Positions 1,215-28,975 of a DNA stretch of 36,204 bases are shown here, piece by piece. The number at the start of each line of letters is the position of its first letter. Position 1 is the first letter of the stretch. The DNA is taken from sequence record DRR378314_367. One strand, given 5' to 3'. The position numbers were made by a program, and so were the translations under genes. The notes beneath the pieces were generated by a model. It made no database searches. It saw nothing but the letters and a program-made list of their open reading frames with translations, and was not told the DNA's origin.

Positions 1215-3685
1215 GCGATGGCCTCCTTATGGGGTAGTTTTCGACCAATCTCAGGCAAGTTGGTCCGGATGCGCCGAAGCCTCAGGGCGTTCGAGACGAC
1301 AAAGACACTGGACAGGGCCATGGCTCCGGCCGCCAGCGCGGGTGAAAGCAAATGACCGCCCAATGGGTACAACACTCCGGCCGCAACTGGGATTAGAAGC
1401 GTGTTGTACCCAAAGGCCCAGCCAAGATTCTGCCGGATGTTGCGCATTGTGCGTCGGCTGATTTCGACCGCATTCGCAGCCCCGCGCAGATCGCCCGACA
1501 TCAACACCACATCTGCCGTTTCGATGGCCACATCCGTACCGGTTCCAATCGCCAAACCGATATCTGCCGTCGCCAGCGCAGGCGCATCGTTGATACCATC
1601 ACCGACAAAGGCAAGCGTTCCAAACTGGTGCTGCAACTCTTCGATTGCATCAACCTTGCCATCTGGCAGCACCTCGGCAGTGACGTGATCAATGCCCAGC
1701 TTGTCAGCCAATGCTTGTGCTGTTTGTGCGTTGTCGCCCGTGATCATGGCCAGAGTCAGACCCATCTGGTGCAGACGTGCCAACGCTTCGGGCGTGCCCG
1801 GCTTGATTGGGTCCGAAACCGTCAAGGCCGCAGCGGCTTGCCCGTTAATCGCAACATAAATCGGCGTCGCGCCTTCTGCGGCACGTTTCTGAGCCTCAAG
1901 CCGCATGTCGCCGAGGTCAAGGTTGTGTTGCTCCATCAGCCGGTCAGCACCAATCAGTACCGAACAGCCTTCGATTTGCGCACGCAGGCCAAGCCCTGTC
2001 AGAGATTCAAATTCTTCCACATCGGGCAAATTATCGGGCCCTGCGCGTGTGATTGCTGTGGCGATCGGGTGTTCCGAGCGTGCCTCGGCAGCGGCAGCCA
2101 AGCGCAGAACTTCTGCGCGACCAAAGCCATTTGTTGTTATGACGTCTTCCAGTTCCGGGCGGCCAAGGGTCAGTGTGCCTGTCTTATCCAACGCGACCAC
2201 TTTTGCCTGCTGCAAAAGCTGCAGCGCATCCCCTTTACGGAACAACACGCCCAACTCGGCCGCGCGCCCCGTCCCCACTATGATCGAAGTTGGCGTGGCC
2301 AAACCCATCGCACAGGGGCAGGCGATGATCAGCACCGATACCCCGGCCACCAGTGCCAGCGGCAATGCCGGAGCCGGGCCAAAGATCAGCCACGCGGCGA
2401 CCGTCAGCAACGCCACTCCAATAACGGCGGGCACAAAATAGTAGGTGATCCGATCCACCAAACCCTGGATGGGTAGCTTTGCGCTCTGCGCCTGTTCGAC
2501 CATACCAATGACCTGCGCCAGCACAGTATCGGCACCCACATGGGTTGCGCGAATGCGCAGCGCTCCGGTGCCATTTACCGTTCCTCCAACAACCGGATCG
2601 CCCTTTGCTTTGCCAACCGGTACGGGCTCACCCGTGATCATGCTTTCGTCGATATACGAGGTTCCATCCAAAACCGCGCCGTCCACGGGCACACGTTCAC
2701 CCGGACGGATTTGTACGATATCCCCAGCCACGATCTCAGCGATGGGCCGGTCAAGAGTGGCCCCACCCCGCTCGACCCGCGCGGTTTTGGGCTGCAGCCC
2801 AACCAGTTTGCGGATCGCGGCCCCGGTTCGTCCCTTAGCACGGGATTCCATCAGGCGGCCCAGCAAGATCAGCACAACGATGACCGCTGCAGCCTCGAAA
2901 TAGACATTTGCAGTGCCTTGCGGCAGCACCTGCGGCGCAAAAGTTGCGAGGACCGAATACAGATACGCCGCGCCTGTTCCTAATGCGACCAGTGCATTCA
3001 TATCGGGCGCACCACGCAACAGCGATGGAATGCCCTTGGCATAGAACACGCGCCCCGGGCCGAGAAGCAACGCAGAGGTTAGGGCGAACTGGATCAGATG
3101 GCTTGTATGCAAGCCAATGGTCGCATGCACCCAATGGTGAAATGCTGGGATCATGTGCCCGCCCATTTCCAGTACGAAAACCGGCAAGGCCAATGCGACG
3201 GCGGTCATAGTTGTGCGGCGCAAACCAGCAAGTTCTTTGGCCTTGCCATCGCGATCCGCCGTGCCGGTATCCGTCGGGCGCGTCGGATACCCCGCTTCAG
3301 TTAGTGTTTTGGCCAACGTTGCCGGTTCGGTTGCGCTGTCGGCATAGGTTACAGTGGCGCTGTTGGTGGCAAGATTGACCGCTGCGTCAACCACACCCGG
3401 TGCGGCCCTCAGGGCGCGTTCAATCCGGGATACGCACGAGGCGCAGTTCATACCGTCGATGTCTAGACGGGTCTGTTGTGTTGCTGCCGGATATCCTGCT
3501 GTTTTGAGCGCATCCAGAACTTCGGAAATCGATTTGTCATAGGTGACATCTGCGGTTTCGGTCGCGAAGTTGACCACGGCAGCACGCACGCCCGGTGCGG
3601 CCCGCAATGCGCCTTCAACCCGGCCAACGCACGAGGCGCAGCTCATACCTGTTATCTTGATCTGTGAGTGCAGTGAATCGGCCAT
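1211..3685 (-). CDS. copA: Copper-translocating P1B-type ATPase
   Basis: Two HMA domains (GMSCASC, GMNCASC), [26 protein letters not shown] and MALSS motifs. Start moved to ATG 3685 because the longer ORF runs through the CueR promoter. Confidence 0.95.
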
Positions 3686-3716
3686 CCGAGGCGCCCTGAC
3701 AATGATGTTCGCCTTA

Positions 3717-3747
3717 GATATAAAGGTTCCAGTGACAGGAGGGTCAA
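3717..3747 (-). promoter_or_regulatory. CueR-type sigma70 promoter/operator of copA-cueR
   Basis: Minus strand reads TTGACC-CTCCTGTCACTGGAACCTT-TATATC: a -35 box, 19-bp spacer and ACCcTCC-N7-GGAAccT dyad matching the CueR consensus ACCTTCC-N7-GGAAGGT. The -10 box is imperfect. Confidence 0.8.
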
Positions 3748-3797
3748 GGTGCAGCTGACACCTGCGCGCGCCCGTCGCACCCAAACTTGCAGCTTTT

Positions 3798-4570: not shown

Positions 4571-4637
4571 ACACGGATTGGAAGGAATCACACTCCCGAG
4601 TAGCCTTAGGCAAACACTTGATCTGGAGAGCTAATTG

Positions 4638-5795
4638 ATGTCGCTTTTTACCAGCACTGCCACTTGGGTTACGGATGAACACCGGATGTTTGCCGAAATG
4701 GCGGGCCGGTTCATGGATGATGAACTGGTGCCCAACACCGAAAAATGGGCTGAGAACGGCGTGGTTGACCGCGGGTTCTGGTTGCAGGCGGGGCAGACGG
4801 GTCTGATGGCCGGTTCGATTGCCGAGGAGTATGGCGGCGTGGGCGGTGGGATGGGCTTCGATGCCGTCACCTTGTACGAGCAGACCGCGCGCGGTGATGC
4901 GGGATGGGGTTATGGCATCCAGTCCATCGTGATTCATTATATCTCCACATATGGCAGTGAAGATCAGAAACAGAAATGGCTGCCGAAACTGGCCTCGGGC
5001 GAAATGATCGGTGCGCTGGCTATGACCGAGCCGGGCACCGGATCGGATGTTCAGGCGGTGAAGACGACGGCTGAGAGGGATGGCAATTCGTACCGGTTCA
5101 ACGGATCCAAGATCTTTATCACCAACGGGCAATCTGCTGATCTGGTCATTGTGGCGGCCAAAACTGACAAGTCTCTGGGTGCGAAGGGTGTTTCGCTGAT
5201 TGCAATCGAAACCGATGGGGCCGAAGGGTTTCGGAAGGGGCGAAACCTCAAAAAGCTAGGGATGAAGGGTAATGATACGGCCGAGCTGTTCTTTGAGGAC
5301 GTCAAAGTACCGATGACCAACCTGCTTGGCCCGGAAGAGGGGCAGGGCTTCTATCAGTTGATGAAGCAGTTGCCCTGGGAACGGCTGACCATCGGGATCA
5401 TGGCGCTGGGTGCGATCGATTTCGCACTCTCCGAAACGGTGAAGTATGTGCAAGAGCGCAAGGCCTTTGGTCAGCGGGTGATGGATTTCCAGAACACGCG
5501 TTTCAAGTTGGCCGAGTGCAAGACCAAGGCCGAAGTGCTGCGCAGTTTCGTTAATGACTGCATCGGGAAGCTGGAAGCTGGTGAACTGGACGCGGCGACG
5601 GCTTCGATGGTGAAGTATTGGGGGTCGGAAGTGCAGAACGAAGTCATGCACGAATGTCTGCAACTGTTCGGGGGTTACGGGTTCATGATGGAATACCCGA
5701 TTGCGCGGCTCTATGCGGACGCACGGGTTCAGATGATCTATGGCGGGACCAATGAGGTTATGAAGGAACTCATCGCCCGCTCGTTGGACGTCTGA
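4638..5795 (+). CDS. Acyl-CoA dehydrogenase (long-chain-specific type)
   Basis: AMTEPGTGSD, NGSKIFITNG, QLPWERL, RKAFG, QLFGGYG, IYGGTNE. ATG 4638 follows GGAGAG. Confidence 0.93.
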   Translation: MSLFTSTATWVTDEHRMFAEMAGRFMDDELVPNTEKWAENGVVDRGFWLQAGQTGLMAGSIAEEYGGVGGGMGFDAVTLYEQTARGDAGWGYGIQSIVIHYISTYGSEDQKQKWLPKLASGEMIGALAMTEPGTGSDVQAVKTTAERDGNSYRFNGSKIFITNGQSADLVIVAAKTDKSLGAKGVSLIAIETDGAEGFRKGRNLKKLGMKGNDTAELFFEDVKVPMTNLLGPEEGQGFYQLMKQLPWERLTIGIMALGAIDFALSETVKYVQERKAFGQRVMDFQNTRFKLAECKTKAEVLRSFVNDCIGKLEAGELDAATASMVKYWGSEVQNEVMHECLQLFGGYGFMMEYPIARLYADARVQMIYGGTNEVMKELIARSLDV

Positions 5796-5957
5796 CACCA
5801 AGCACTCCCGCCCGTCGTCGACATTCCTGACCCTCCTCGCTGTCCGCAGGACGCAAGGCCGTAGGCCGCGCAGGATTCGTCACAGACCGGCATTGATGCG
5901 GTGCGTCTTGCCTGCCACTGTGATCAACAGGAATATCAGACCGGGAGGAAACCCAGC

Positions 5958-6710
5958 ATGGATACGTCCAACAAGGATCGCATATGTGCGTTGCTCAAAA
6001 GTATTGAGACTGGCGATCCGGGCCCGATATCGGTTGTGAACGAAGCTCGGTACATTCAACATAATCCGCAAACCCACGAAGGCAGTGAGGGGTTGGCGGC
6101 TTTGTTCAAGCGGCTGTCCGAGACCTCGCCGCGTGTAAACATCGTACGCGCGTTTGAGGATGGTGCATTCGTATTTGCCCACACGGAGTATGATTTCGCG
6201 CGCCGCAATATCGGCTTTGAAGTATTCCGGTTCGAAGACGGTCAGGCGGTCGAGCATTGGGACAATATTCAAAAACGTCTGGGGCCGAATGGCTCAGGGC
6301 ATAGCATGGTGGACGGCACTGCAGGGGTTCGGGATGTTGAGAAGACCGAAGAAAACCGGGTTTTCGTCCGTGCGTTCGTCGAAACAGCGTTGATTGCCGG
6401 GGACCAAAGTCAGATTGATGCCTGTATAGATCCAGCCGCCTTTGTAGAGCATAGCCCACGTTTCTCTGACGACCTCACAGAGTTGCGGGCCGCGATATCC
6501 GATGCAGGCGATGTGAATTATCAGCGTCTCCATCGTGTCTTGGCGGAAGGCGATTTTGTTTTGACGGTTTGCGAAGGCGAGCTTGAGGGGAACCACACCT
6601 CTTTCTATGACTTGTTCCGAGTGTCTGATGGCAAGATCGTCGAACATTGGGACACGATTGAGTCCATCGCGCCGCGCAGTGAATGGAAAAATGACAACGG
6701 AAAGTTCTGA
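5958..6710 (+). CDS. Tandem SnoaL-like (NTF2 superfamily) domain protein
   Basis: Two repeats each ending FR..DG..VEHWD and containing YIQHNP / FVEHSP. ATG 5958 follows GGGAGG. Confidence 0.85.
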   Translation: MDTSNKDRICALLKSIETGDPGPISVVNEARYIQHNPQTHEGSEGLAALFKRLSETSPRVNIVRAFEDGAFVFAHTEYDFARRNIGFEVFRFEDGQAVEHWDNIQKRLGPNGSGHSMVDGTAGVRDVEKTEENRVFVRAFVETALIAGDQSQIDACIDPAAFVEHSPRFSDDLTELRAAISDAGDVNYQRLHRVLAEGDFVLTVCEGELEGNHTSFYDLFRVSDGKIVEHWDTIESIAPRSEWKNDNGKF

Positions 6711-6717
6711 GGTGGCG

Positions 6718-7617
6718 CTAAAGGCTAGCTCCCGTCTTTAACTGGCTATCGATCCAACTCCGGAAGGATCGCAGCGGCTCGGGCGTGGTACGGTCATTCG
6801 GCCAGACTAGATAATAGCTGCCAAGACTCACGCCTGGCCCGTGCCATGCCTGAACAAGCCGCCCGGCGCGCAGATCGTCCTGCACCAGATATGACGGCAG
6901 CAAAGCCACACCCAACCCGTGAATCGTGGCCTGAATCATGGTCGAGAATTGGTCGAATAGCATCCCCTGCAGGCCCGTAACCCTTTGACCCTGCATCTCA
7001 AACCAGCGCTCCCAGGCATCTGGCCTGGAATCCAGATGCAAAAGCGGCGCGGAGTGCAGGGTATCCAAACTACCAAAATCGGCGGCGGTAGACATTGGGG
7101 CGCAGACGGGTAAGACCTCTTCCCGCATTATGGGCAAATAGTGAACGCCAGCCCATTCTTGCTGTCCGAAATGAATGGCGGCATCAAACGGCTCGGACGC
7201 GAAATCAAACGGTTTAAGTCGGGTGCCCAGATTGACCGTGACCTCTGGATGACGTCGGGCAAAATCTTGCAGTCGGGGTGCGAGCCAGTGCATTCCGAAT
7301 GCGGGTAGGATCGACAGGTTAAGCGATCCGCCCGCCGGGTTTGCTTTGAGTTTCAATGCGGCCTGTGCGAGCTCTTGCACTGCAGACCTTGCGGTTTGCA
7401 CATAGTCTTTAGCGGCAGGTGTCAGGTGCAACCGCATCTGGCTGCGTTCGATCAGTTGAACCCCCAGTTGGTCTTCCATCGTCTTCAACTGGCGACTGAT
7501 CGCGCTTTGCGTCAAGGATAGTTCAGCAGCCGCAGCCGATGCACTACCCAGCCGGTCCACAGCTTCAAGCGCAAGCAGAGAGGAGATGGAAGGTAAAAAT
7601 CGCCGGGGTGCAATCAT
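6718..7617 (-). CDS. LysR-family regulator, GcvA/GcdR-like
   Basis: LPSISSLLALEA...LTQSAISRQ HTH, HWLAPRL, GLGVALLP. Divergent from the E1 operon. Start taken at MIAPRRF (7617); 7632 is an alternative. Confidence 0.9.
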   Translation of the reverse strand: MIAPRRFLPSISSLLALEAVDRLGSASAAAAELSLTQSAISRQLKTMEDQLGVQLIERSQMRLHLTPAAKDYVQTARSAVQELAQAALKLKANPAGGSLNLSILPAFGMHWLAPRLQDFARRHPEVTVNLGTRLKPFDFASEPFDAAIHFGQQEWAGVHYLPIMREEVLPVCAPMSTAADFGSLDTLHSAPLLHLDSRPDAWERWFEMQGQRVTGLQGMLFDQFSTMIQATIHGLGVALLPSYLVQDDLRAGRLVQAWHGPGVSLGSYYLVWPNDRTTPEPLRSFRSWIDSQLKTGASL

Positions 7618-7633
7618 ATGATTTATCCTCATA
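7617..7633. promoter_or_regulatory. Candidate LysR recognition site TATGA-N7-TCATA (contains T-N11-A)
   Basis: Dyad TATGA TTTATCC TCATA abutting the LysR start codon, the usual position for divergent LysR boxes. Confidence 0.6.
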
Positions 7634-7813
7634 CCTTATCAACGCAATAGCACTGGTTTTTTCCTATCGCCAGAGCGATGACTGCAAGAACACACTAACA
7701 CTATCCGTGACCTTGAAATTCACACCGGAGCGCGGGACAAATCAAAAAAGCGGGCAGCGCCCGCGCCGCGGTCGACCAAGACCGATGACACAGACCAGAC
7801 AAAAGCGAGAGCC

Positions 7814-10006
7814 ATGGACCGCGCCCAGATCGTACATGAGAATTTTCTGACCCGTGTCGCAGATCGCGATTTTCCCGACGGCGCGCCGCCGTGTGAAGGG
7901 TTGAGTGATACGGATGCCGTTTCGCTATTTCGGTCGCAGATTCTCAGCCGTGCGCTGGATCGAACCAGTCGGGCGATGCAGAAGGCCGGGCAGGGGTTCT
8001 ACACCATCGGCTCGTCCGGGCATGAAGGGATGGCAGCCGTCGCACATGCGCTGCGGCCAACCGATATTGCGTTCCTCCATTATCGGGACGCGGCCTTTCA
8101 GATCTCGCGGTCTGAACAGGTGCCAGGGCAGCAGATCGCTTGGGACATGCTGCTTAGTTTCGCGTGTTCGCGTGAGGACCCCACTTCGGGCGGGCGGCAT
8201 AAGGTGTTGGGATCAAAGGCGCTGATGATCCCACCTCAAACCTCAACCATTGCAAGCCATTTGCCGAAAGCGGTCGGTGCAGCCTATGCGCTTGGGGCTG
8301 CGCGTCGACATGCGCCCGAGCATTGTGTGTTACCGGAAGACGGGATTGCGATGTGTTCGTTTGGGGATGCGTCGGCCAATCACTCCACGGCTCAGGGTGC
8401 GATCAACACGGCTGGCTGGACCAGTGTGCAGTCGACGCCGTTGCCGCTGTTGTTCGTGTGTGAAGACAATGGAATTGGTATTTCGGTCAAAACACCCAAG
8501 GGCTGGATCCAGGCGTCGATGGAGCATCGTCCGGGGATCAAGTATTTTCAGGCCAATGGGCTGGACGTTTATGAGACTTATGCGGTTGCTAGTGAGGCTG
8601 CCGACTATGTCCGCAGGCGTCGGAAACCGGCCTTCCTGCACCTAAAAACCGTTCGTCTTTATGGCCATGCCGGAGCGGATGTGCCGACTACCTATCTGCC
8701 GAAATCCGAAGTCGAGGAAGATGAGGCCAACGATCCGTTGCTGCATACTGTGCGCTTGCTTGACCAGGCCGGTGCGCTGTTGCCGGATCAGGCGCTGGAT
8801 ATCTATCGCGACACCTGCGCCAGAACGGATCGCGTAGCCACAAAGGCCGCCAGCCGTCCGCATTTGGTCAATGCGTCCGAGGTTATGGCGAGCCTGATCC
8901 CACCAAAGCGCCCCTGCAAGCCGACCAACGGCCCAAGCGCCGAGGTGCGCGCGAAAGCCTTTGGCGGGGATATGCGCGCGATGGTTGAACGACAACCCAT
9001 GAGCCGCCTGATCAACTGGGCGCTGACCGATCTGATGCTGGAGCATAGCGAAATCATCTGCATGGGTGAGGACGTGGGCCGCAAGGGCGGTGTATATGGC
9101 GTGACGCAGAAGCTGCAGCAGCGCTTTGGCCCGGACAGGGTGATCGACACCTTGCTGGATGAGCAATCCATTCTGGGTCTTGCCATCGGCATGGGCCATA
9201 ACGGGTTCGTCCCGATCCCCGAAATCCAGTTTCTGGCCTATCTGCACAATGCCGAGGACCAGATAAGGGGCGAGGCTGCCACGTTGCCGTTCTTTTCAAA
9301 CGGGCAGTTCACCAACCCAATGGTGCTGCGGATCGCTGGTTTGGGATATCAGAAAGGGTTTGGTGGACATTTCCACAATGACAACTCTTTAGCTGTTTTG
9401 CGGGATATTCCGGGTGTGATCATCGCGTGCCCCTCGACCGGGGCGGACGCGGCGCAGATGCTACGTGAATGCGTGCGACTGGCGCGAGAGGAGCAGCGCG
9501 TGGTTGTATTTCTCGAACCGATCGCGCTCTACCCGATGCGTGATTTGCATGGGGCGCAGGATGGGGAATGGATGACCAATTATCCGTCTCCCGATCAGAA
9601 GATCGCGCTGGGCGAAATTGGCATACATGGTGCCGGCACAGATCTGGCAATTGTGACCTATGGCAACGGGCACTACCTATCGAAACAGGCCTTGCCGGAA
9701 CTTGAAGCGGCGGGTCTGAAAACCCGGATCATTGACATGCGTTGGCTGGCGCCGTTACCGACCGATGCCCTGCGCGAGGCCACCAAAATGTGTAAACACA
9801 TTTTGATCGTTGATGAATGTCGCCGTACCGGCAGTCAATCCGAGGCGCTGATGACTTTCTTCGTCGAAGAAAGTCCCTCCACCCCGACCGCTCGTGTTGT
9901 GGCCGAGGATTGCTTTATTGCAACCGGCCCGGCCTATGCGGCCTCTCTTCCCACCAAGGACGGAACTGTCTCTGCCGCTTTGGCTTTGACCGGAGGTAAA
10001 TCATGA
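7814..10006 (+). CDS. ThDP-dependent 2-oxoacid dehydrogenase E1, fused alpha+beta subunits
   Basis: Alpha part: GHEG, HYRD, ThDP motif variant GDAS...EDNGIGIS, RLYGHAGAD. Beta part: GEDVGRKGGV, DEQ, EIQF, GGHFHN and a transketolase C-terminal region. No lipoyl domain. Confidence 0.9.
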   Translation: MDRAQIVHENFLTRVADRDFPDGAPPCEGLSDTDAVSLFRSQILSRALDRTSRAMQKAGQGFYTIGSSGHEGMAAVAHALRPTDIAFLHYRDAAFQISRSEQVPGQQIAWDMLLSFACSREDPTSGGRHKVLGSKALMIPPQTSTIASHLPKAVGAAYALGAARRHAPEHCVLPEDGIAMCSFGDASANHSTAQGAINTAGWTSVQSTPLPLLFVCEDNGIGISVKTPKGWIQASMEHRPGIKYFQANGLDVYETYAVASEAADYVRRRRKPAFLHLKTVRLYGHAGADVPTTYLPKSEVEEDEANDPLLHTVRLLDQAGALLPDQALDIYRDTCARTDRVATKAASRPHLVNASEVMASLIPPKRPCKPTNGPSAEVRAKAFGGDMRAMVERQPMSRLINWALTDLMLEHSEIICMGEDVGRKGGVYGVTQKLQQRFGPDRVIDTLLDEQSILGLAIGMGHNGFVPIPEIQFLAYLHNAEDQIRGEAATLPFFSNGQFTNPMVLRIAGLGYQKGFGGHFHNDNSLAVLRDIPGVIIACPSTGADAAQMLRECVRLAREEQRVVVFLEPIALYPMRDLHGAQDGEWMTNYPSPDQKIALGEIGIHGAGTDLAIVTYGNGHYLSKQALPELEAAGLKTRIIDMRWLAPLPTDALREATKMCKHILIVDECRRTGSQSEALMTFFVEESPSTPTARVVAEDCFIATGPAYAASLPTKDGTVSAALALTGGKS

Positions 10007-11037
10007 CCCGCACGGCTGTTGTCATCTGTCCAGGCAGGGGCACCTACAACAAGCCTGAGTTGGGCTTTCTGCATCGGCACCACCCTGATCGAATGGATCT
10101 GTTCCACCGCTTTGACGCTATCCGAGCTGAAACGGGACAAGAGACGCTTACAGCGTTGGATGGGGCCGATCGCTATAGCGTTGGGAAATATTCGCGCGGC
10201 GACGTGGCTTCACCCCTCATTTATGCGGCGTCATTGGCAGATGCGCAGGCGCTGGCCGGGGATATCGAGGTGGTCGCCGTAACCGGTAACTCGATGGGGT
10301 GGTATATCGCATTGGCGGTTGCCGGGGCGTTGACCCCTGAGAACGGCTTTCGCGTGGTCAACACGATGGGCACCCTGATGCAAGAGCATCTGATCGGAGG
10401 GCAACTGGTATATCCTTTCGTTGACGAAGATTGGGCGAACGATCCGGCGCGCAAGTCTGTGTTGCTGAACGATGTGACGCGGATCAACGCAATGAAAGGA
10501 CATACTCTTTCACTGTCGATCGATCTGGGCGGGATGCTGGTGCTCGCAGGCAATGAGGCCGGGTTAAAGGCGTTTGAATCCAACCACCCCGCTCTGCAGG
10601 ACCGGTTCCCTTTGCGGCTTGCCAATCACGCTGCGTTTCACACCGCGTTACAAGCCCCAGTAGCGGCAGAGGGCCGGACGCAACTCGGCCCTGATCTCTT
10701 TGACCAGCCTAAACAGCCGATGATTGACGGGCGTGGCAAGATCTGGTGGCCCGGGGCCACGGATACGAGGGCGCTGTGGGCGTATACACTTGGGCATCAG
10801 GTGACCGAGACCTATGATTTTACGCACGCCATCCAGACAGCTGCACGTGAATTTGCACCCGACTTGTTCATCGTTACCGGCCCCGGCGCTACGCTGGGCG
10901 GTGCGGTGGCGCAATCGCTGACATTGGGGAACTGGCGGGGCATGGCACACAAGGCTTCGTTCCAGACGTTGCAAGACACAGATGCGTTCTTGATCGCAAT
11001 GGGGCGGGCCGACCAGCGCGCTCTTGCAACCGGCTAG
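10003..11037 (+). CDS. FabD-like (ACP S-malonyltransferase fold) acyltransferase with atypical active site
   Basis: ICPGRG (cf. FPGQG), GNSMG nucleophile elbow (cf. GHSLG), AAFHT His, GPG. ATGA overlap with the E1 gene and GGAGG RBS. Confidence 0.82.
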   Translation: MTRTAVVICPGRGTYNKPELGFLHRHHPDRMDLFHRFDAIRAETGQETLTALDGADRYSVGKYSRGDVASPLIYAASLADAQALAGDIEVVAVTGNSMGWYIALAVAGALTPENGFRVVNTMGTLMQEHLIGGQLVYPFVDEDWANDPARKSVLLNDVTRINAMKGHTLSLSIDLGGMLVLAGNEAGLKAFESNHPALQDRFPLRLANHAAFHTALQAPVAAEGRTQLGPDLFDQPKQPMIDGRGKIWWPGATDTRALWAYTLGHQVTETYDFTHAIQTAAREFAPDLFIVTGPGATLGGAVAQSLTLGNWRGMAHKASFQTLQDTDAFLIAMGRADQRALATG

Positions 11038-11078
11038 GTCCGGCCCGATGATCGGCAATATTCTGACGAGGGTTGGGC

Positions 11079-12350
11079 ATGCGCGACTTTGATCAATCGT
11101 TATGGCGGCAGACCTGTCGCGAACGGATCGACATGCAAAAGCTTTCCGGTGACATAACCGTTGATCTTGCGGTGATCGGTGGCGGATATACCGGGTGTTC
11201 CGCTGCCTTGATGGCCGCAAATTCAGGCGCTTCGGTCTGCTTGCTCGAAGCGCATCAGATCGGCCACGGCGGATCGGGGCGGAATGTCGGGCTGGTCAAT
11301 GCAGGGCTTTGGTTGCCACCCGATCAAATCCGGGCGCATCTTGGGCAAGCGGCAGGTGATCGGTTGATCGATCTGCTGGCCAACGCCCCTTCAGAGGTCT
11401 TTGACCTGATCGATACGCTTGAAATTGCCTGCGAGCCTGTGAGGCATGGCACCTTGCATTGTGCCCATTCGGCCAAGGGCTTTGGTGACCTGCGTACACG
11501 TCATACACAGCTCAGCACCTCCGGCGCGCCGGTCAAACTGCTTGACGCTGATACGTCGCGCCAGCGCACCGGCAGTCCCGCTGTCCATGGCGCTTTGTTT
11601 GATCCCCGCGCGGGCACGATCCAGCCACAGGCCTATGCGGTGGGCCTGGCTCGCGCGGCCCAAGATGCAGGTGCGCAGATATACACTCAGAGCCCGATTG
11701 AATCCCTGCAGCAAGAAGCGGAGATGTGGGTTTTGCGTGGAAATGGTGCAACCGTGCGCGCGAAATCGGTCATTCAGGCAACCAACGCCTATCATCAGGG
11801 CATGGCAAACACTGTGCCCGACTACGTTCCAGTCTACTATTTTCAATACGCTACTGCGCCGTTGTCGCATAACCTGCGGGCCAGCATATTACCTAAAGGC
11901 GAGGGGTGCTGGGATACGGGCCTGATCATGACGTCCTTCAGGTTGGATGAGGCCGGGCGGTTCATTATCGGCGGAATGGGCGATCTGAGTAGTGCTGGAA
12001 GCTTCGCCCACAAAGCTTGGGTCAGACGGAAACTGGCAGCGCTTTATCCGCAACTGGCAGATCAGCCTTTGACCCAGGGTTGGCACGGGCGGATAGCCAT
12101 GACCTCGGACCACATTCCCAAGATCACTCAGATTGGCCCGAATGCGCTGGCCGCGCACGGGTTCTCGGGGCGTGGGATCGGGCCGGGTACCGTATTCGGA
12201 CGCTTGATGGCCGAAAGCCTGCTGAATGACGATCCGTCCCTGCTGCCGGTACCGCCAGTGTCGGAGTATAGTGAAAACTGGACCGGCCTGCGCCGCGCAT
12301 TCTTTGAAACCGGCGCGGCGCTGACGCATTTTGTTAAGGCACGCTTTTGA
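11079..12350 (+). CDS. FAD-dependent oxidoreductase (DAO family), L-pipecolate oxidase-like
   Basis: VIGGGYTG, IGHGGSGRNVGLVNAG.W, GTLHCAH, AGTIQP, G.WDT, GFSGRG.GPGTV.G, LR.AFFE.G. From memory these resemble Pseudomonas AmaA; substrate not proven. Confidence 0.85.
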   Translation: MRDFDQSLWRQTCRERIDMQKLSGDITVDLAVIGGGYTGCSAALMAANSGASVCLLEAHQIGHGGSGRNVGLVNAGLWLPPDQIRAHLGQAAGDRLIDLLANAPSEVFDLIDTLEIACEPVRHGTLHCAHSAKGFGDLRTRHTQLSTSGAPVKLLDADTSRQRTGSPAVHGALFDPRAGTIQPQAYAVGLARAAQDAGAQIYTQSPIESLQQEAEMWVLRGNGATVRAKSVIQATNAYHQGMANTVPDYVPVYYFQYATAPLSHNLRASILPKGEGCWDTGLIMTSFRLDEAGRFIIGGMGDLSSAGSFAHKAWVRRKLAALYPQLADQPLTQGWHGRIAMTSDHIPKITQIGPNALAAHGFSGRGIGPGTVFGRLMAESLLNDDPSLLPVPPVSEYSENWTGLRRAFFETGAALTHFVKARF

Positions 12351-12352
12351 CC

Positions 12353-13054
12353 CTAGACCGAACGTGTGATGCCACCATCGACACGGATGTTCTGCCCGGT
12401 GATATATCCGCCACCCTCTGAGGCGAGCATTGCCACGACCGAGGCGATTTCATCATAGCTGCGCCCATAACGGCCTAGCGGGATGCGCGCGCGAAACTCT
12501 TCCTTTTCAGGCAGGCTGTCGATGAAGCCGGGCAAGACGTTGTTCATGCGAATGTTCTCGGCGGCGTATTTGTCCGAGTAAAGCTTGGTGAACGCCGCAA
12601 GCCCGGCGCGGAATACGCCCGAAGTCGGAAAAACCGGATCAGGCTCGAACGCCGCAAAGGTCGAGATATTGATGATCGACCCGCCGCCTTGTTCCTGCAT
12701 GATCGGCGTCACCAGTCGGGTGGGGCGTACGGCATTCATGAAATAAACATCCATGCCGGTGTGCCAATCCTCATCGCTCAGATCCAGCACGTCAGCGCGG
12801 GGGCCATGGCCTGCCGAATTGACCAGCACGTCAACGCGCCCCCAATGGTTCATGGCCGCATCGATCAGCTTATGCAGATCGTCGGTGGACTGGTTTGATC
12901 CGGTCACGCCCACACCACCCAGTTCTTTCGCCAGTGCCTCACCCTTGCCGGACGAGGACAGGATGCCAACCTTGAACCCATCCGCTGCCAGCCTGCGGGC
13001 CGAATCCGCGCCCATACCGCTGCCGCCGGCGGTGATCAAAGCTACTTTTTCCAT
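12353..13054 (-). CDS. Short-chain dehydrogenase/reductase (SDR), atypical catalytic motif
   Basis: TAGGSGMG, VDVLVNSAG, NNVLPG, ITGQNIRVDGG; YxxxK position reads SGVFR. ATG 13054 is 7 nt after AGGAG. Confidence 0.9.
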   Translation of the reverse strand: MEKVALITAGGSGMGADSARRLAADGFKVGILSSSGKGEALAKELGGVGVTGSNQSTDDLHKLIDAAMNHWGRVDVLVNSAGHGPRADVLDLSDEDWHTGMDVYFMNAVRPTRLVTPIMQEQGGGSIINISTFAAFEPDPVFPTSGVFRAGLAAFTKLYSDKYAAENIRMNNVLPGFIDSLPEKEEFRARIPLGRYGRSYDEIASVVAMLASEGGGYITGQNIRVDGGITRSV

Positions 13055-13135
13055 CTTCACGCTCCTTTGCGTTGTACTGCTTGAAGATGGAGGAACGATG
13101 CCAGTTTGACTAATCAGTTCTGTTGCGCAATGGCA

Positions 13136-13149
13136 GTAGAAAATCTACA
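13136..13149. promoter_or_regulatory. Candidate LysR site GTAGA-AAA-TCTAC (T-N11-A)
   Basis: Dyad just upstream of the LysR start in the divergent SDR/LysR intergenic region. Confidence 0.5.
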
Positions 13150-13157
13150 GTCAGGGG

Positions 13158-14009
13158 ATGTCTGCTCTTCCACCTCTCAACGCGATGCGCGCCTTCGAGG
13201 CCTCGGCACGTCACTTGAACTTTCGTCTGGCAGCCGAAGAAATTGGCGTCACGCAGGGGGCGGTTGCACAACAGGTGCGCGGGCTTGAGGCGCGACTGGG
13301 GATTGCACTGTTCGAACGGCTTCCGCGTGGGTTGCGCTTGACCGAAGCCGGACGCCGGTTCCACGCGCCTCTGCGCCGGGCGTTTCATTTGATCGAGGAA
13401 GCCGTCGATGAACTGTCCGATCAGCGGCAGATCACGATCTCGGTCACGCCCAGCTTTGCCTCAAAATGGCTAGTGCCCCGCCTGAACGATTTTGTGTCCC
13501 GCTTTCCCGATATCTCGGTTCAGGTCGACGCACGTGAACGACTGGCTGATTTCCAGTCGGACGGGATCGACATCGCAGTGCGTCAAACCCGGTCACCAGT
13601 TGCACGGGGATTAAAAGCCACACCACTTTTCTCGACCGAGTTCGTTGTTGTTGGCAGCCCGGAACTGGCATCGCAAATCTCTGGTCCTGACGATTTGATG
13701 CAGCACGTTCTGCTCAGCGATTCACACGGGCTGTGGCCTCTGTTTCTGGAACGCGTCGGGGTCGAGGGGCGGCCACGGATGATGAGTTTCAGTCAGACCA
13801 GTCTGGCGATTGACGCCGCTATCTCGGGGCAGGGTTTTGCGCTGGCCAATGCGCCGCTTGTGTCGGCTGAACTGGCCTCGGGCCGGTTGATGCAGCCGCT
13901 ATCTGAGGTGCTGGTTGATGATCTCAGTTTTTTCATCGTCACCCCACAGAAGCCGCGCCAACCCGAGCTGGTGCAACAGATGCGCGATTGGCTGCTGTCT
14001 CAGGTCTGA
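13158..14009 (+). CDS. LysR-family regulator, GcvA-like
   Basis: LPPLNAMRAFEASARHLNF..AAEE..VTQGAV, SFASKWLVPRL. Divergent from the SDR gene. Confidence 0.93.
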   Translation: MSALPPLNAMRAFEASARHLNFRLAAEEIGVTQGAVAQQVRGLEARLGIALFERLPRGLRLTEAGRRFHAPLRRAFHLIEEAVDELSDQRQITISVTPSFASKWLVPRLNDFVSRFPDISVQVDARERLADFQSDGIDIAVRQTRSPVARGLKATPLFSTEFVVVGSPELASQISGPDDLMQHVLLSDSHGLWPLFLERVGVEGRPRMMSFSQTSLAIDAAISGQGFALANAPLVSAELASGRLMQPLSEVLVDDLSFFIVTPQKPRQPELVQQMRDWLLSQV

Positions 14010-14902
14010 AGCGTTGCGGCAATGGCCTCGATCCGATCTCGCAACCAACGATGTGCCGGATCGTTGGCTGATCGTTGATGCCAGACCATGTAGATCGACA
14101 CCGGCTCGCATTTGAACGGCAGCGGCGCGCAGTCCAGCGCGGCCAGCGGTCCGCGTTTCATCAATTCCGTATCGGTCGAGATCAAGTTGCTGCCTTTCAC
14201 AAAGGGCGGGATGGCGTTGAAATGGGGCAGGGTAACGACGGGCGGTCTGATCTGGCTTTGGTCCACGCCCCGCATCACGGCACGCGCATTGCGCCCATCA
14301 GCAAAGCGCACCTCGACATGGTCGCTGTTGCAATAGGCGTGCCAATCCTTGGGCGGATCGCGACGTGCGGCATCGTAGAACACCATCAGAGGGCTGGTGA
14401 TCAGGCGTTTCTGAAAGATATCGGGTCCATCCGGAGGCAACGGGGTCAGCATCAACTGACACCGGTCGCTGCGCAGCAGGTCCGGGTCGGGAACGCCCGA
14501 AGGGATGAATTCAAGCCGTAATCGAACACCTTCATTGCGCATCGTCCGCAGAAGAACGGGAAAGATCAGCTCTCGCGGCATGTCGTTGGTGGCGATTTGG
14601 ATGTCCATCTGTTCGGACAGTGGATCGAACGGGCGGCCCTCGGTCAGGGCGCGCATGTTGTCCAACACCTGTTGTACAGGCTCTTTTAGCGACAGCGCGC
14701 GCTCGGTCGGGGTCAGGCCCTGACCGGATCGGACAAACAGCGGATCACCCAGCACCTGCCGCAACTTGCCCAGCGTATGGCTGATGGCCGATTGCGTTAC
14801 CCCCAGACGGTCGGCGGCTTTCGAGACCGAGCTTTCCTCGAGTATCGTCAAGAATACCCGCAGAACCTTGCCGTCCAGGTCAGTGAAATCAATTTTACTC
14901 AT
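14000..14902 (-). CDS. LysR-family regulator (NodD/LeuO-like), probable regulator of the dehalogenase
   Basis: SVSKAADRLGVTQSAISHTL..LR..LGDPLFVR, WHQRSANDPAHRWLR. Divergent from rdhA across 76 bp. Confidence 0.92.
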   Translation of the reverse strand: MSKIDFTDLDGKVLRVFLTILEESSVSKAADRLGVTQSAISHTLGKLRQVLGDPLFVRSGQGLTPTERALSLKEPVQQVLDNMRALTEGRPFDPLSEQMDIQIATNDMPRELIFPVLLRTMRNEGVRLRLEFIPSGVPDPDLLRSDRCQLMLTPLPPDGPDIFQKRLITSPLMVFYDAARRDPPKDWHAYCNSDHVEVRFADGRNARAVMRGVDQSQIRPPVVTLPHFNAIPPFVKGSNLISTDTELMKRGPLAALDCAPLPFKCEPVSIYMVWHQRSANDPAHRWLRDRIEAIAATLQT

Positions 14903-14925
14903 ACTATCTATGATTATTCATGAAT
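14899..14925. promoter_or_regulatory. Candidate LysR operator: TCATA-N5-TATGA plus adjacent ATTCATGAAT palindrome
   Basis: Two dyads at 14899-14913 and 14916-14925; the first overlaps the LysR start codon. Confidence 0.55.
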
Positions 14926-14978
14926 GGTTTTGGTGTCCATGCCAGAGTAGGGGGAATACAGCAAGCAAGAGGTGCGCG

Positions 14979-17900
14979 ATGGGGATCCGCTTTTTCTCGG
15001 ACAAGAACCGACCCGTTCACTTGGGGTCGTATCCGCTGGAGCGGTTGGCGCGGCAGGATCAGATGCCCGATCTGGCGCAGGTCACGCCGATGCGTGCCCT
15101 CAGCTTCCACCGGCCCGAGCATCCTGAAAGCATCGTGAATGCGATGGGTGAGTTTCAAGCGATGTTGGATGCGATCCGGGATGGGTTCGTGAATCCGGTC
15201 CCCTCAGAGATTCCTTTCGACCCTACGGATCGCGCCAACCATCTGAAAGCGTTCGGCTATTTCAACGACGCATCAATGATGGGCTGCGGGCCGCTGCCAT
15301 CGGATGCGATGCTGGCGGAGCCTCGGCGGAACCCGGATATCGACCGGCTCGCACATGCGCTCAGGACGCGGCAAACCAAGACGCTGGCCTCGGGTATCGA
15401 CGTAATCATGGCGGACCTGAAAGAAAGCATGGAGGCCGCGCCCAGGCCTATCGGCAGCCATAGCCATGCGATCGTGTTTCTCTATGAGTTCAACCGCGAT
15501 CCGGACCCGTCAGAGCCGGGAGCGGATTGGATCATGGATGCGCAGGATCACCGGGCCTGCCTGCTTGCCACCGAGAATGCGGTGGTGATCGCAAACTATA
15601 TCCGCCTTTTGGGCTTCGACGCGCGTGCACACACGGCGATGTCGTCCGAGGTTGATCTGGGCAAGCTCGCGGTCGCGGCGGGTCTGGCCTCAGTCGAGGA
15701 CGGTGCAGTTGTGGTGCCTTGGCTGGGTAAGCGGTTTGGCCTGGCTGCGGTAACCACCGAGATGGAAATCGCGCATGACAGACCCTTGCGGCCCATCGCC
15801 GAACAGCCGTGGTTACGCACCCAAGGCCCCGCATGGTGGCTGGGGGCTGGCTTTGCCAAGAACGCGCTGAACCGGGATGCCTATGCCAAGCGACGCTATG
15901 TCGACGGGGCGCATTCGTTCGAGAAGCTTAAACGGGTCGACAGCCCGACCACCTATATCGACGAGGATAATGTCGCCCGCGTGCCCAAACGTGCGGACAT
16001 GTTTGCGCGGGCCCAGTTCGGCGACATGGGAAAATCGCTGCAGGATGCGACCAAAGGCGGGCACTACGTACGCAAATCCGCCCCAAGCTTTGCCCAACGC
16101 CGCGCGCTGGGTGCCTTCGTTTTGCTACAGGACGGCGATAGCGCCGAGGTCGAGCAGCCCTCGGATGCCGAGCGGAATGCCGCGAACATTAAGGCCGCCA
16201 CCTATTTCCTAGGTGCCGACGCCGTTGGCCTTAGTCGATGCCCGGAATGGAGTTGGTATTCTCACGATGCCACCGGGGAAGAGATTGTGCCGCCTCATGA
16301 TCAGGCCATCAGTATGATCATCGATCAGGGCTATGAAACGATGGAAGGGTCCAGTGGCGATGACTGGATCGCGGTTAGCCAATCCATGCGCGCCTACCTG
16401 AGGTTCTCGCTACTGGGTGGCGTGATCGCACAGCAAATCCGCAATCTCGGCTACAAGGCCAAAGCGCATACGGTGATGGACGGCGAGGTGCTGCAACCAC
16501 CGCTTCTGCTGCTTTCTGGATTAGGAGAGGTCAGCCGGATCGGAGAGGTCATCCTGAACCCCTATCTCGGCCCGCGCCTGAAATCGGGCGCGGTGACCAC
16601 CGATATGCCTATGGCGCATGACAAACCCATTGATTTCGGCCTGCAGACCTTCTGCGGGTCGTGCAACAAATGTGCCCGCGAATGTCCCTCAGGCGCGATC
16701 ACCGCCGGACCGAAGCTGATGTTCAACGGCTATGAGATATGGAAATCCGACAGCCAGAAATGCGCCACCTACCGTATCACCACGCCCGGTGGCGCGATGT
16801 GTGGACGTTGCATGAAGACCTGCCCCTGGAATCTGGAAGGTCTTTTCAAGGAACGCCCCTTCCGCTGGGCTGCGATGAATATTCCCCAAGCCGCGCCGGC
16901 CTTGGCGAAGCTGGATGATGTCGTGGGTAATGGCGGTCTGAATGACACCAAGAAATGGTGGTGGGATATCGAGCTGGAGCCCGACGGGGCCTATCGCCCG
17001 TCGCAGCATCCATTGAACCGGCGGGATCTGCAAAAAGACCTCGATCTAAAATACGAGGATCAGACGCTCGCCGTTTATCCCGCCCCGCTTGCCCCGCATC
17101 CGTGGCCTTATCCGTTCATTATGGACCGCGAAGCTGGAATTGCCGCCTACGAGGCGATGGTCACAGCCGAAGATTACAAGGCGCGCAAGGCGGCGGGCGA
17201 CATGTCGGTCATCCACCAATACCAGGTTGCCGGGGACGCCCCGGTGATGCGGGTGGAACTGACCAAGGTCGACCAGATGACCACGGATGTCACCAAGTAT
17301 GAATTCTCGACCCTCGACGGCGCACCGCTGCCCGAATGGACGGCCGGGGCGCATCTGGACGTTTTGGTTTCGCCCGAATTCCTGCGGCAATACTCGATGT
17401 CAGGTGATCCGTCTGACCGGGGCACTTATCAGATCGGTGTTTTGCGCGAGGATGAGGGGCGCGGTGGTTCAGCCTTGTTGCATCGCATCTTCAACGAAGG
17501 GCGCAAGGTTTTTATCTCGAAGCCGATCAACCATTTCGAACTGGATGAGACCGCGACTAAAACCTTCCTGATGGGCGGCGGTATCGGCATCACGCCGATG
17601 ATCGCCTTTGCCCACCGGCTGCATGGCTTGGGCAAGCCGTTCGAACTGCATTATTCTGCCAGCACGCGTGCCGGGGCCGGATACTTGGACGATCTCGCCG
17701 CCATGCCTTGGGCCGATCACGTGCATTATCATTTCTCCGATGAAGGCACGCGGGCCGATCTAGCAGTGGTTCTGGGCGGATATCAGGATGGTTGGCACGT
17801 CTACACCTGCGGCCCCGACCGTTTTATGGATGGCGTCATACAGGCGGCTGAGCAGCAGGGTTTCCCGGAAGAGGCGCGGCATCTGGAATATTTCTCGGTC

Positions 17901-18191: not shown

Positions 18192-18320
18192 TCCATCACG
18201 AAAAAACGACATTTTGAATCACAAAAATTGGTCGTTCCAGCCATGGACGCCACCGATTTGCTGCACTAACGTCCCCGGCGAACCCCAGTCTACCCTGATC
18301 AACAGGTGCGAGGTATTTTC

Positions 18321-23048: not shown

Positions 23049-23050
23049 AC

Positions 23051-23065
23051 TTCAATATCCTTGAA
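23051..23065. promoter_or_regulatory. Candidate LysR recognition site TTCAA-N5-TTGAA (T-N11-A)
   Basis: Perfect dyad TTCAA TATCC TTGAA 2 bp upstream of the LysR start, in an AT-rich divergent intergenic region. Confidence 0.65.
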
Positions 23066-23148
23066 ATTTATTTAAGCTATTTGAGTTTGACTGATGCGAT
23101 CCAAAAAATCCATCCTGTGACAAACGAATTCTGACTCTGGGGCGCATT

Positions 23149-27876: not shown

Positions 27877-27888
27877 AAGAAGACCTAA

Positions 27889-28899: not shown

Positions 28900-28975
28900 G
28901 GCCTTGTAGCGCAAATCCGGGGCGCATGAAAATAATGCCTGGAAATCGGGACACGTGCGAACAGGGAGGAAACAC

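Follow-up and report, generated by a model that had tools for sequence, protein, structure and literature searches.

A fused 2-oxoacid dehydrogenase E1 paired with a FabD-fold acyltransferase: a candidate module for the 2-oxoadipate step of bacterial lysine and pipecolate catabolism

The sequence analysed here (hereafter, the window) is a stretch of Ruegeria DNA of 36,204 nucleotides from record DRR378314_367, in which a divergently oriented regulator gene precedes three co-directional open reading frames (Table 1). The letters at 10003–10006 bear out the predicted ATGA overlap between the gene for a fused 2-oxoacid dehydrogenase E1 and that for a FabD-fold protein, and a GGAGG motif lies upstream of it. 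The third open reading frame can be read from TTG 11073, although its start is likely to be the in-frame ATG at 11079, which leaves the gap of 41 bp described in the original prediction. Within positions 6600–13200, matches to the promoter consensus were not in excess (three, versus a mean of 2.9 in shuffled sequences), and the sites returned by a terminator scan of the same region were no commoner than in shuffles. Domain scans of the 29 long open reading frames of the window returned no E2, E3, ACP, GcvH or lipoyl domain and no PP-binding open reading frame; eight intergenic open reading frames of 55–149 amino acids, scanned together with three others, likewise contained no E2, E3, ACP or lipoyl protein. 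The earlier statement that the window encodes no E2, E3 or ACP is thus upheld by both scans.

Table 1. Features of the E1/acyltransferase locus and the basis of each assignment
Feature	Position	Strand	Basis or remark
LysR-family regulator, 304 aa	6718..7632	-	divergent; HTH_1 and LysR_substrate domains
Divergent intergenic region, 181 bp; presumed promoter and operator	7633..7813	.	position only
Fused ThDP-dependent 2-oxoacid dehydrogenase E1 alpha/beta, 730 aa	7814..10006	+	Pfam domains
FabD-fold Ser-His acyltransferase, 344 aa, uncharacterised subfamily	10003..11037	+	predicted model, fold match, conserved residues
AmaA-like FAD oxidase, probably L-pipecolate oxidase	11079..12350 (ORF from TTG 11073)	+	DAO family

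The E1 chain contains Pfam domains E1_dh (residues 40–329; E = 7.1e-29), Transket_pyr (397–571; 3.9e-23) and Transketolase_C (602–711; 2e-16), which is the domain order of a ThDP-dependent alpha/beta-type 2-oxoacid dehydrogenase E1. An alpha half (approximately residues 1–345) is joined to a beta half (approximately 396–730) by a linker (approximately 346–395). The Pfam scan agrees with the original description of an alpha/beta fusion devoid of a lipoyl domain, and it found no flavin or iron-sulfur domain either. Among solved structures, the E1 proteins of BCKDH and PDH of the alpha/beta type are nearest (1um9, 1ik6, 1qs0 and 1w85), and the beta half of the predicted model (pLDDT 74.5) matches 1um9_B with a TM score of 0.89. 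Curated PDH and BCKDH models do not claim the protein, the best of them (NF006667) giving 125.8 bits, far short of the 321 required. The N-terminal sequence MDRAxIVH is kept across loci.

Residues His285, His521, Glu450, Asp185 and Asn219 are invariant in all 25 E1 sequences compared. We take Asp185 and Asn219 to belong to the ThDP/Mg motif, Glu450 to be the cofactor-activating glutamate, and His285 and His521 to be the catalytic histidines of the alpha and beta halves. His285 aligns with His291 of human BCKDH alpha and His521 with His128 of Geobacillus E1-beta (index 129 in 3duf_B); both positions are presumably needed for the reductive acylation of lipoamide, the latter as proton donor to the dithiolane. 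With its catalytic residues all conserved, the E1 chemistry is, as read from the sequence, intact. The original prediction had entertained a lipoate-independent reaction; this part finds no support, because both reductive-acylation histidines are invariant, and its fallback of a borrowed lipoyl carrier fits better. The conserved histidines also serve decarboxylation, and therefore do not prove the use of a lipoyl group.

The FabD-fold protein matches no Pfam family at E ≤ 0.001, and its matches to curated models are weak (37–43 bits for FabD/MdcH models against cut-offs of 261–298; for TIGR00128, 37.3 bits against 260.9). Its predicted model has a pLDDT of 97.4, and the first seven structures ranked by Foldseek are all FabD (TM 0.71–0.84, E 1e-18, 16–22% identity). 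Ser97, within a GNSMG motif, and His213 form a Ser-His dyad that is invariant in 40 of 40 sequences, while Arg12, Asn96 and Gln266 are at least 90% conserved. In a profile alignment with Escherichia coli FabD (1mla), Arg12 falls at Gln11 and Met122, the family consensus, at Arg117, the residue which in FabD presumably binds the malonyl carboxylate. The family, for which 145 representatives were collected at E ≤ 1e-30, is annotated everywhere as 'ACP S-malonyltransferase', a label that is almost certainly wrong.

As predicted, the flavoprotein downstream belongs to the DAO family (2.1e-61). Its proposed resemblance to the pipecolate oxidase AmaA holds over its full length (aligned at 7–420 of 425 with NF050086; 425.3 bits, E 2.1e-127), but the score stays below the curated cut-off of 600 bits. 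The highest-scoring NCBIfam match of the regulator is to the GcvA subfamily, whose cut-off of 288 bits it misses with 256.

Eighty related loci were surveyed, of which 73 have at least 2300 nt of upstream sequence. These loci are GC-rich; their genes were called by a codon-position GC score and neighbours were counted by tblastn. The E1 gene lies no more than 150 nt upstream of the acyltransferase gene in 72 of the 73, and a four-base overlap, ATGA or GTGA, is preserved in 76 of the 80. No acyltransferase lacking its E1 was found among loci with enough upstream sequence, and one Shewanella plasmid (48% identity) and one Ruegeria plasmid carry the pair as well. The two genes form a fixed module, paired far beyond chance. 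Two apparent E1-acyltransferase fusions were discarded: P0392 (1082 amino acids) is a frameshift artefact in which E1 homology stops near residue 575 and an Arg-rich out-of-frame stretch leads to a normal acyltransferase start, and P0384 (595 amino acids), in which the acyltransferase continues the reading frame of Transketolase_C, is only a fragment. LysR homologues of at least 40% identity are present in 43 of the 80 loci, in most cases immediately upstream of the operon and divergent from it.

Among the 82 neighbour clusters that recur in at least two of the 80 loci there is no E2, ACP or lipoyl-carrier gene, and the sole Biotin_lipoyl match is to an HlyD-type protein. Dedicated E2/E3 genes beside the orthologues would have spoken against the original prediction; no E2 cluster emerged, and an E3-like gene, encoding a VTT/Pyr_redox_2/Pyr_redox_dim fusion, is confined to two of the 80 loci, approximately 5.5 kb downstream of the pair. 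The arrangement is accordingly not that of a canonical E1-E2-E3 operon, with its co-encoded lipoyl E2 and co-encoded E3.

In loci mostly from Paracoccaceae, the pair is flanked on one side by genes for a glutaryl-CoA dehydrogenase and an aminotransferase, and on the other by those for L-piperideine-6-carboxylate dehydrogenase (AmaB) and a lysine-dehydrogenase-like protein. Across the 80 loci, AmaB is a neighbour in 36, the lysine-dehydrogenase-like gene in 25, the aminotransferase in 22, the acyl-CoA dehydrogenase (ACAD) of GcdH type in 20 and the AmaA-like oxidase, following the pair, in 17; at least one of the five is found in 53. The neighbouring AmaB scores above its curated cut-off (820 versus 730 bits), and the ACAD aligns with glutaryl-CoA dehydrogenases of Burkholderia and human with 612 and 561 bits, respectively. 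The step which this setting leaves to the pair would be the conversion of 2-oxoadipate to glutaryl-CoA, and in the complete lysine operons of these relatives the conserved pair sits exactly there. Judged from gene neighbourhood, the pair probably acts at the 2-oxoadipate step. Of the original idea of a two-component 2-oxoadipate system, the two-gene unit and, in relatives, the lysine neighbours have stood, while lipoate independence has not. The expected co-occurrence with gcdH, amaB and lysine genes is seen in the sister clade and not in the window's own.

Direct observation covers the layout of the locus, the fold of the acyltransferase, the conservation of catalytic residues, the strict coupling of the two genes and, in relatives, the surrounding pathway genes; around these a route can be drawn. 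The AmaA-like oxidase would convert L-pipecolate to piperideine-6-carboxylate, which enzymes encoded elsewhere would take through 2-aminoadipate to 2-oxoadipate. E1, with ThDP and Mg, would decarboxylate 2-oxoadipate and reductively glutarylate a lipoyl group; with no lipoyl protein encoded nearby, a housekeeping one would have to supply it. Ser97 of the FabD-fold enzyme, assisted by His213 as base, would then accept the glutaryl group for transfer to CoA, so that this enzyme would fill the role of an E2 catalytic core; Arg12 may hold the distal carboxylate, a methionine standing in place of the malonyl-binding arginine of FabD. A housekeeping E3 would reoxidize the lipoyl group, and the divergent LysR regulator may control the operon. 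In this scheme we infer which substrate is used, that acyl groups pass via the acyltransferase, that the lipoyl carrier is borrowed and what Arg12 does.

Taken as a whole, the explanation of an E1/acyltransferase module that converts 2-oxoadipate to glutaryl-CoA via a borrowed lipoyl carrier seems to us evenly balanced between right and wrong, and the assignment of the acyltransferase as the CoA-acylating component falls just short of that. More tentative is the proposal of a 2-oxoacid dehydrogenase that dispenses with an E2 core, the acyltransferase moving the glutaryl group made by E1 to CoA, as the missing bacterial enzyme for this step. The glutaryl donor would then be the lipoyl carrier of another complex or GcvH or, less likely, the ThDP adduct directly.

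The physiology of Roseobacter fits the proposed route: in Phaeobacter inhibens, labelled lysine reaches glutaryl-CoA by way of pipecolate and 2-aminoadipate; the available part of that report names no gene for the 2-oxoadipate step (PMC5653290). A point against it comes from Agrobacterium, in which, according to the portion available of one study, biotin synthesis requires glutarate and the CoA-transferase CaiB (PMC7645780); some alphaproteobacteria therefore have a route from 2-oxoadipate to free glutarate.

It is conceivable, if rather unlikely, that E1 is a DHTKD1-like enzyme working on a housekeeping E2 (E2o, E2p or E2b) and E3, with the FabD-fold protein as an accessory. Such a protein might shuttle glutaryl groups between CoA and another thiol carrier, for example ACP, or might be an editing acyl-hydrolase; the FabD fold does include trans-acting acyl hydrolases, and PksD is among the fold matches. 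The overlap kept in 76 of the 80 loci is hard to reconcile with an accessory role, as is an acyltransferase never found apart from E1. Neither the window nor the set of recurrent neighbour clusters has an ACP near the pair. E2 genes usually follow those of E1, and it is this slot that the acyltransferase gene occupies, a further point against a merely accessory function. The housekeeping-E2 reading draws on the retention of every canonical E1 catalytic residue, on the absence of a lipoyl-carrier gene nearby and on the precedent of DHTKD1 itself, whose partners are given as DLST and DLD in the accessible part of the source (10.1101/2020.01.20.912931).

The window's own clade raises a different question. 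In a quick tree, the window falls within a clade of 34 rows (SH-aLRT 99) in which AmaB is beside the pair in none, the oxidase is present in 15, and neither is found in 19. No LysDH-like or GcdH-type gene adjoins any Ruegeria-type or Phaeobacter/Leisingera-type locus, and a different ACAD type, 28–30% identical to the GcdH type, is a conserved neighbour in 16 Ruegeria-type loci. Moreover, the copy on the Ruegeria plasmid is of the other clade's type, and the clades could therefore be paralogues with different substrates. The window's Roseobacteraceae type would then act on another 2-oxo acid, downstream of a DAO-family oxidase that supplies it from another amine or amino acid, as the sub-threshold AmaA score of the oxidase would allow. 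We consider this unlikely. Identity between the clades is high (67–77% for E1, 64–71% for the acyltransferase), a homologous LysR occupies the same divergent position, and six Ruegeria-type loci (L008–L010, L014, L015 and L030) carry an aminotransferase 57–60% identical to that of the lysine operons. Homologues of the oxidase directly follow AmaB in three loci (L054, L060 and L064), and the split largely separates Roseobacteraceae from Paracoccaceae, as expected of orthologues.

True lipoate independence, in which a non-lipoyl acceptor oxidizes the enamine-ThDP and the acyltransferase captures the glutaryl group from 2-glutaryl-ThDP, is very improbable: the locus has no lipoyl protein gene and the window has a flavoprotein downstream of the pair, but that flavoprotein accompanies just 17 of the 80 loci, neither a flavin nor an iron-sulfur domain is present in E1, the histidine matching Geobacillus His128 is invariant, and a protein-disulfide acceptor formed through linker Cys368 was rejected, this residue being cysteine in 23 of 25 E1 sequences, valine in Shewanella and asparagine in L058.

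In the literature searched we found no description of an E1/FabD-like pair or of a bacterial alpha/beta-type 2-oxoadipate dehydrogenase, and no gene assigned to the bacterial conversion of 2-oxoadipate to glutaryl-CoA. If the proposed module is real, it would provide a compact two-protein route to glutaryl-CoA, useful for the engineering of glutarate and of pimelate and biotin, and replacement of the E2 core by a FabD-fold protein would change the textbook account of 2-oxoacid dehydrogenase architecture. Either way, the pair is a candidate with which pathway-annotation tools could fill this gap.

An alternative fate of 2-oxoadipate is provided by HglS (DUF1338) of Pseudomonas putida, as described in the parts available of two reports (10.1101/450254; PMC7286885). 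Its product is 2-hydroxyglutarate, formed free of CoA, whereas a glutaryl-CoA dehydrogenase lies beside the pair in 20 of the 80 loci; neither the window nor the set of annotated recurrent neighbours contains a DUF1338 protein. Mammalian DHTKD1, as far as the accessible description goes, resembles the window E1 in the reaction proposed, 2-oxoadipate to glutaryl-CoA in lysine catabolism, and in being a dedicated E1 that lacks an E2 and an E3 of its own. DHTKD1 is, however, a single-chain OGDH-type E1 and has no FabD-like partner, whereas the window protein is a fused E1 of the PDH/BCKDH alpha/beta type; comparison with the DHTKD1 structure (6sy1) gives a match of fold only (TM 0.51), which does not place the window E1 among OGDH-like enzymes. 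The likeness would thus be one of function and not of family membership. With the heterotetrameric (alpha2beta2) E1 of BCKDH and PDH the window E1 shares its domain order, the ThDP/Mg motif, the activating glutamate and both catalytic histidines, but its alpha and beta parts are fused in one chain, and its gene is followed by that of a FabD-fold protein where those systems have a lipoyl-bearing E2. The acyltransferase shares with FabD and the trans-AT enzymes of polyketide synthases the fold, the G-x-S-x-G elbow and equivalents of His201 and Gln250. It departs from FabD in having methionine for Arg117, a near-invariant arginine for Gln11, GNSMG in place of GHSLG and approximately 35 additional C-terminal residues, as well as in being always coupled to an E1 and having no ACP nearby. 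AcoC of the acetoin dehydrogenase system offers a precedent: in this E1-dependent system, a protein of serine-hydrolase fold takes the place of the usual CAT-like E2 core. The fold of AcoC is that of the alpha/beta hydrolases, and in several species the protein bears a lipoyl domain of its own. In comparison to AcoC, the acyltransferase described here has a FabD fold and no lipoyl domain, and would, if the proposed module holds, represent a third solution to acyl transfer, in addition to those of the CAT-like E2 core and of AcoC with its hydrolase fold.

The open reading frames originally predicted at this locus, including the ATGA coupling and the 41-bp gap, were read with the same junctions in the window, and they are listed in the table together with the other features of the stretch. 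The coupling consists of the ATG of the FabD-fold acyltransferase overlapping the TGA of the fused 2-oxoacid dehydrogenase E1, with GGAGG located nine bases upstream; the 41 bp separate the acyltransferase stop from the ATG of the DAO-family reading frame. The closest relatives of both the E1 fusion and the acyltransferase are from Ruegeria, an uncultured isolate of this genus being 98% identical. The flavoprotein had been likened to the L-pipecolate oxidase AmaA, and it does match the AmaA model over its full length (2.1e-127), with a score of 425 bits that falls short of the cut-off of 600. The acyl-CoA dehydrogenase upstream of the LysR gene, kept in 16 Ruegeria-type loci among the best 80 of at least 598, is only 28–30% identical to the glutaryl-CoA dehydrogenase (GcdH) type found at related loci, and it is at most a possible member of the pathway of the pair.

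Features of the 36,204-nt window
Feature	Position	Strand	Remarks
MerR-family regulator and heavy-metal P-type ATPase with two HMA domains	825-3784	-	adjoining; ordinary metal-efflux pair
Short-chain-type acyl-CoA dehydrogenase	within 4635-6710		upstream of LysR gene
Double SnoaL-like protein, 269 aa	within 4635-6710		upstream of LysR gene
LysR-family gene	6718-7632	-	ORF
Intergenic, 181 bp			between LysR gene and 730-aa ORF
E1 fusion, 730 aa	7814-10006	+	ORF
Acyltransferase, 344 aa	10003-11037	+	ORF
DAO-family protein, 425 aa	TTG 11073 to 12350	+	ORF; in-frame ATG at 11079
1141-aa fusion	14766-18191	+	reductive-dehalogenase region
Three-gene molybdopterin dehydrogenase set (FAD_binding_5, Fer2_2, MoCoBD)	18306-21915	+	after 1141-aa fusion
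ThiS-family ORF, 81 aa	21912-22157	+	directly after molybdopterin dehydrogenase large subunit
LysR gene, then operon-like run	22176-30790	- (LysR gene)	aldehyde dehydrogenase first, then M19 dipeptidase-like, 561-aa no-family protein, DUF3726, Ldh_2 family dehydrogenase, BCCT transporter
FabH-like KAS III, then NAD epimerase/dehydratase, MBL-fold protein, 427-aa protein, sulfotransferase	30982-36094		427-aa protein: weak AMP-binding match

The 1141-aa fusion scores 196.8 bits against TIGR02486 (cut-off 160.35) and also carries 4Fe-4S, DmmA-like N and 2Fe-2S domains; it has the appearance of a self-sufficient RdhA of the aerobic type, and 14 Ruegeria-type loci (best 80 of at least 598) keep it as a neighbour. 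The leading aldehyde dehydrogenase of the operon-like run resembles alpha-ketoglutaric semialdehyde dehydrogenase (477 bits, cut-off 770), and the run may serve the catabolism of a betaine-like or cyclic amino compound. The segment that begins with the FabH-like gene showed no ACP gene.

The E1 fusion and the acyltransferase form a fixed unit. When 1.84 billion cluster representatives were scanned in full, 145 acyltransferase relatives came up at E ≤ 1e-30, and a pattern scan with one genome per species gave at least 598 relative-encoding stretches among the 600 matches listed, of which the best 80 were kept as the locus set. Within these best 80 of at least 598, an E1 fusion ends no more than 150 nt from the acyltransferase start in 72 of the 73 loci whose upstream sequence is 2300 nt or longer, the sole exception being L047, where it ends 291 nt away; at six of the seven loci with shorter upstream sequence the E1 C-terminus runs up to the contig edge. 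The exact four-base overlap, as ATGA or GTGA, recurs in 76 of the same 80. The other four comprise L035, which has no upstream sequence, L047 and L068, where 273 and 22 nt separate the genes, and L060, whose implausible value was taken as a mis-assigned start. A Shewanella aestuarii plasmid (48% identity) is annotated with an acyl-CoA dehydrogenase, ThDP enzyme and acyltransferase in a like arrangement, and a plasmid of Ruegeria sp. AD91A is likewise annotated with the pair. A 1082-aa metagenomic protein (P0392), considered as a natural fusion of the two enzymes, was rejected as a frameshifted read-through: Arg-rich out-of-frame sequence stands in place of the E1 C-terminal domain and is followed by a normal acyltransferase start.

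The domain search of the E1 fusion gives E1_dh (residues 40–329), Transket_pyr (397–571), Transketolase_C (602–711) and nothing else, in agreement with the predicted alpha/beta fusion lacking a lipoyl domain. The nearest solved relatives are the heterotetrameric BCKDH and PDH E1 enzymes with their alpha and beta chains, and the curated PDH and BCKDH models are all far from reached (best 125.8 bits, cut-off 321). In alignments, His285 corresponds to His291 of human BCKDH E1-alpha and His521 to His128 of Geobacillus PDH E1-beta, which we take to be the two histidines that the enzyme needs to acylate lipoamide reductively. All 25 E1 sequences, including that of Shewanella, have both of them, and also Glu450, Asp185 and Asn219. 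Since both histidines are invariant and the domain search found no flavin or iron-sulfur domain in the E1 fusion, the suggestion of a lipoate-independent step is unsupported; judged by these residues, the E1 looks made for passing its product to a dithiolane acceptor.

As had been noted, there is no E2, E3 or ACP in the window, nor is there a GcvH or lipoyl domain. All 82 neighbour clusters present in at least two loci were annotated, directly or via window homologues, and no E2, ACP or lipoyl carrier is among them (best 80 of at least 598 loci). The operon genes are packed tightly, with no room for a hidden small carrier gene. At two of the 80 loci (L031, 14551-16704, and L037), a gene about 5.5 kb downstream from the pair encodes a 717-aa protein that joins a VTT (DedA-like) membrane domain to a pyridine-nucleotide-disulfide oxidoreductase (Pyr_redox_2 and dimerisation domains) and is E3-like in domain content.

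No Pfam family matches the acyltransferase at E ≤ 0.001, and among curated models the matches are to FabD/MdcH and weak. The best PDB matches to a structure model built from a 40-sequence alignment (pLDDT 97.4) are FabD enzymes (E about 1e-18; TM 0.71–0.84 for ranks 1–7; 16–22% identity), by which the predicted FabD fold is confirmed and the usual database name 'ACP S-malonyltransferase' is seen to reflect the fold alone. Every sequence of the 40-sequence family alignment has Ser97 (GNSMG) and His213, and Arg12, Asn96 and Gln266 are conserved at 90% or more. In the profile alignment, Ser97, His213 and Gln266 fall on Ser92, His201 and Gln250 of E. coli FabD (1mla), Met122 on Arg117, and Arg12 on Gln11. 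FabD Arg117 is presumably the binder of the malonyl carboxylate, and thus the dyad is intact and the malonyl selector lost. An arginine is gained at a neighbouring position, and together the two replacements may be an adaptation to a longer dicarboxylic acyl group, for example glutaryl.

Neighbours counted by tblastn at the 80 loci (best 80 of at least 598) point to lysine catabolism. The L-piperideine-6-carboxylate dehydrogenase AmaB is present at 36 (820 bits, cut-off 730), a saccharopine-dehydrogenase-fold protein at 25, a class-I aminotransferase at 22, a GcdH-type acyl-CoA dehydrogenase at 20 (612 bits to the Burkholderia and 561 bits to the human glutaryl-CoA dehydrogenase) and an AmaA-like oxidase at 17. 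The best solved relative of the saccharopine-dehydrogenase-fold protein is PH1688 (3abi), which we take to be an L-lysine dehydrogenase (LysDH). At least one of the five adjoins the pair at 53 loci; several of the remaining 27 are short contigs, and ten are of the Phaeobacter/Leisingera type (L017–L026). At three Phaeobacter/Roseobacter-type loci lacking lysine genes (L018, L019, L050), a TetR regulator and an alpha/beta-hydrolase gene lie just upstream of the pair. The typical order is a divergent LysR gene, aminotransferase, GcdH, E1 fusion, acyltransferase, AmaB and the LysDH-like gene. Such an operon encodes the route from lysine through aminoadipate semialdehyde and 2-aminoadipate to 2-oxoadipate, as well as that from glutaryl-CoA to crotonyl-CoA. 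With all other steps taken, 2-oxoadipate to glutaryl-CoA is the sole step left for the pair.

The most likely scheme is that the E1 would decarboxylate 2-oxoadipate and glutarylate a borrowed lipoyl group carried by a housekeeping protein, that the coupled FabD-fold enzyme would transfer the glutaryl group via Ser97 to CoA in place of an E2 core, and that housekeeping E3 would close the cycle. The main rival follows DHTKD1, the mammalian 2-oxoadipate dehydrogenase E1, with housekeeping E2 and E3 doing all of this and the acyltransferase being accessory; it accounts less well for the invariant four-base coupling.

In a quick maximum-likelihood tree built from 82 acyltransferases, the window belongs to a 34-row clade (SH-aLRT 99), mostly of Roseobacteraceae. 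AmaB is beside the pair in none of the 34 members, and tblastn detected no LysDH-like or GcdH-type gene beside Ruegeria-type or Phaeobacter/Leisingera-type loci. The oxidase is present in 15 members, and six Ruegeria-type loci have an aminotransferase 57–60% identical to the lysine-operon one. The predicted co-occurrence with gcdH, amaB and lysine genes is seen at part of the locus set but not beside window-type loci; a two-component system for 2-oxoadipate is favoured by the fixed pair and the step left in lysine operons, whereas the clade of the window has no AmaB or GcdH neighbours. The window-type and lysine-operon-type pairs could be paralogues, since the acyltransferase of the AD91A plasmid (L082, NZ_CP031947.1, 4419-11023), 65% identical to that of the window, groups with the lysine-operon clade. 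There the order is a divergent LysR gene, aminotransferase, acyl-CoA dehydrogenase, E1 fusion and acyltransferase, and this second type of pair in Ruegeria may reflect paralogy or plasmid-borne transfer. Against paralogy, the two clades are close in sequence (E1 67–77% and acyltransferase 64–71% identical), a LysR homologue holds the same divergent position in both types, and the split runs largely along family lines. We consider it probable that the pair in the window acts on 2-oxoadipate.

A full-text literature search found no description of the E1/acyltransferase pair. Excerpts of a study of Phaeobacter inhibens trace the label of lysine via pipecolate and then 2-aminoadipate into glutaryl-CoA, and the gene assigned to the route there is the plasmid-borne pipecolate oxidase only (PMC5653290). 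For Ruegeria pomeroyi, lysDH is given as SPO0234 and AASADH as SPO0235 in a partial text (PMC4334477). In Agrobacterium, according to an extract, 2-oxoadipate, lysine or glutarate yields glutaryl-CoA and from it a biotin precursor; the CoA-transferase CaiB is essential for this, which means that Agrobacterium has a route by way of free glutarate (PMC7645780).

In comparison to the known enzymes, the E1 unites in one chain the alpha and beta parts that are separate chains in the BCKDH and PDH heterotetramers, and the acyltransferase extends the FabD core by about 35 residues at its C-terminus, with conserved Phe320 and Gln324.
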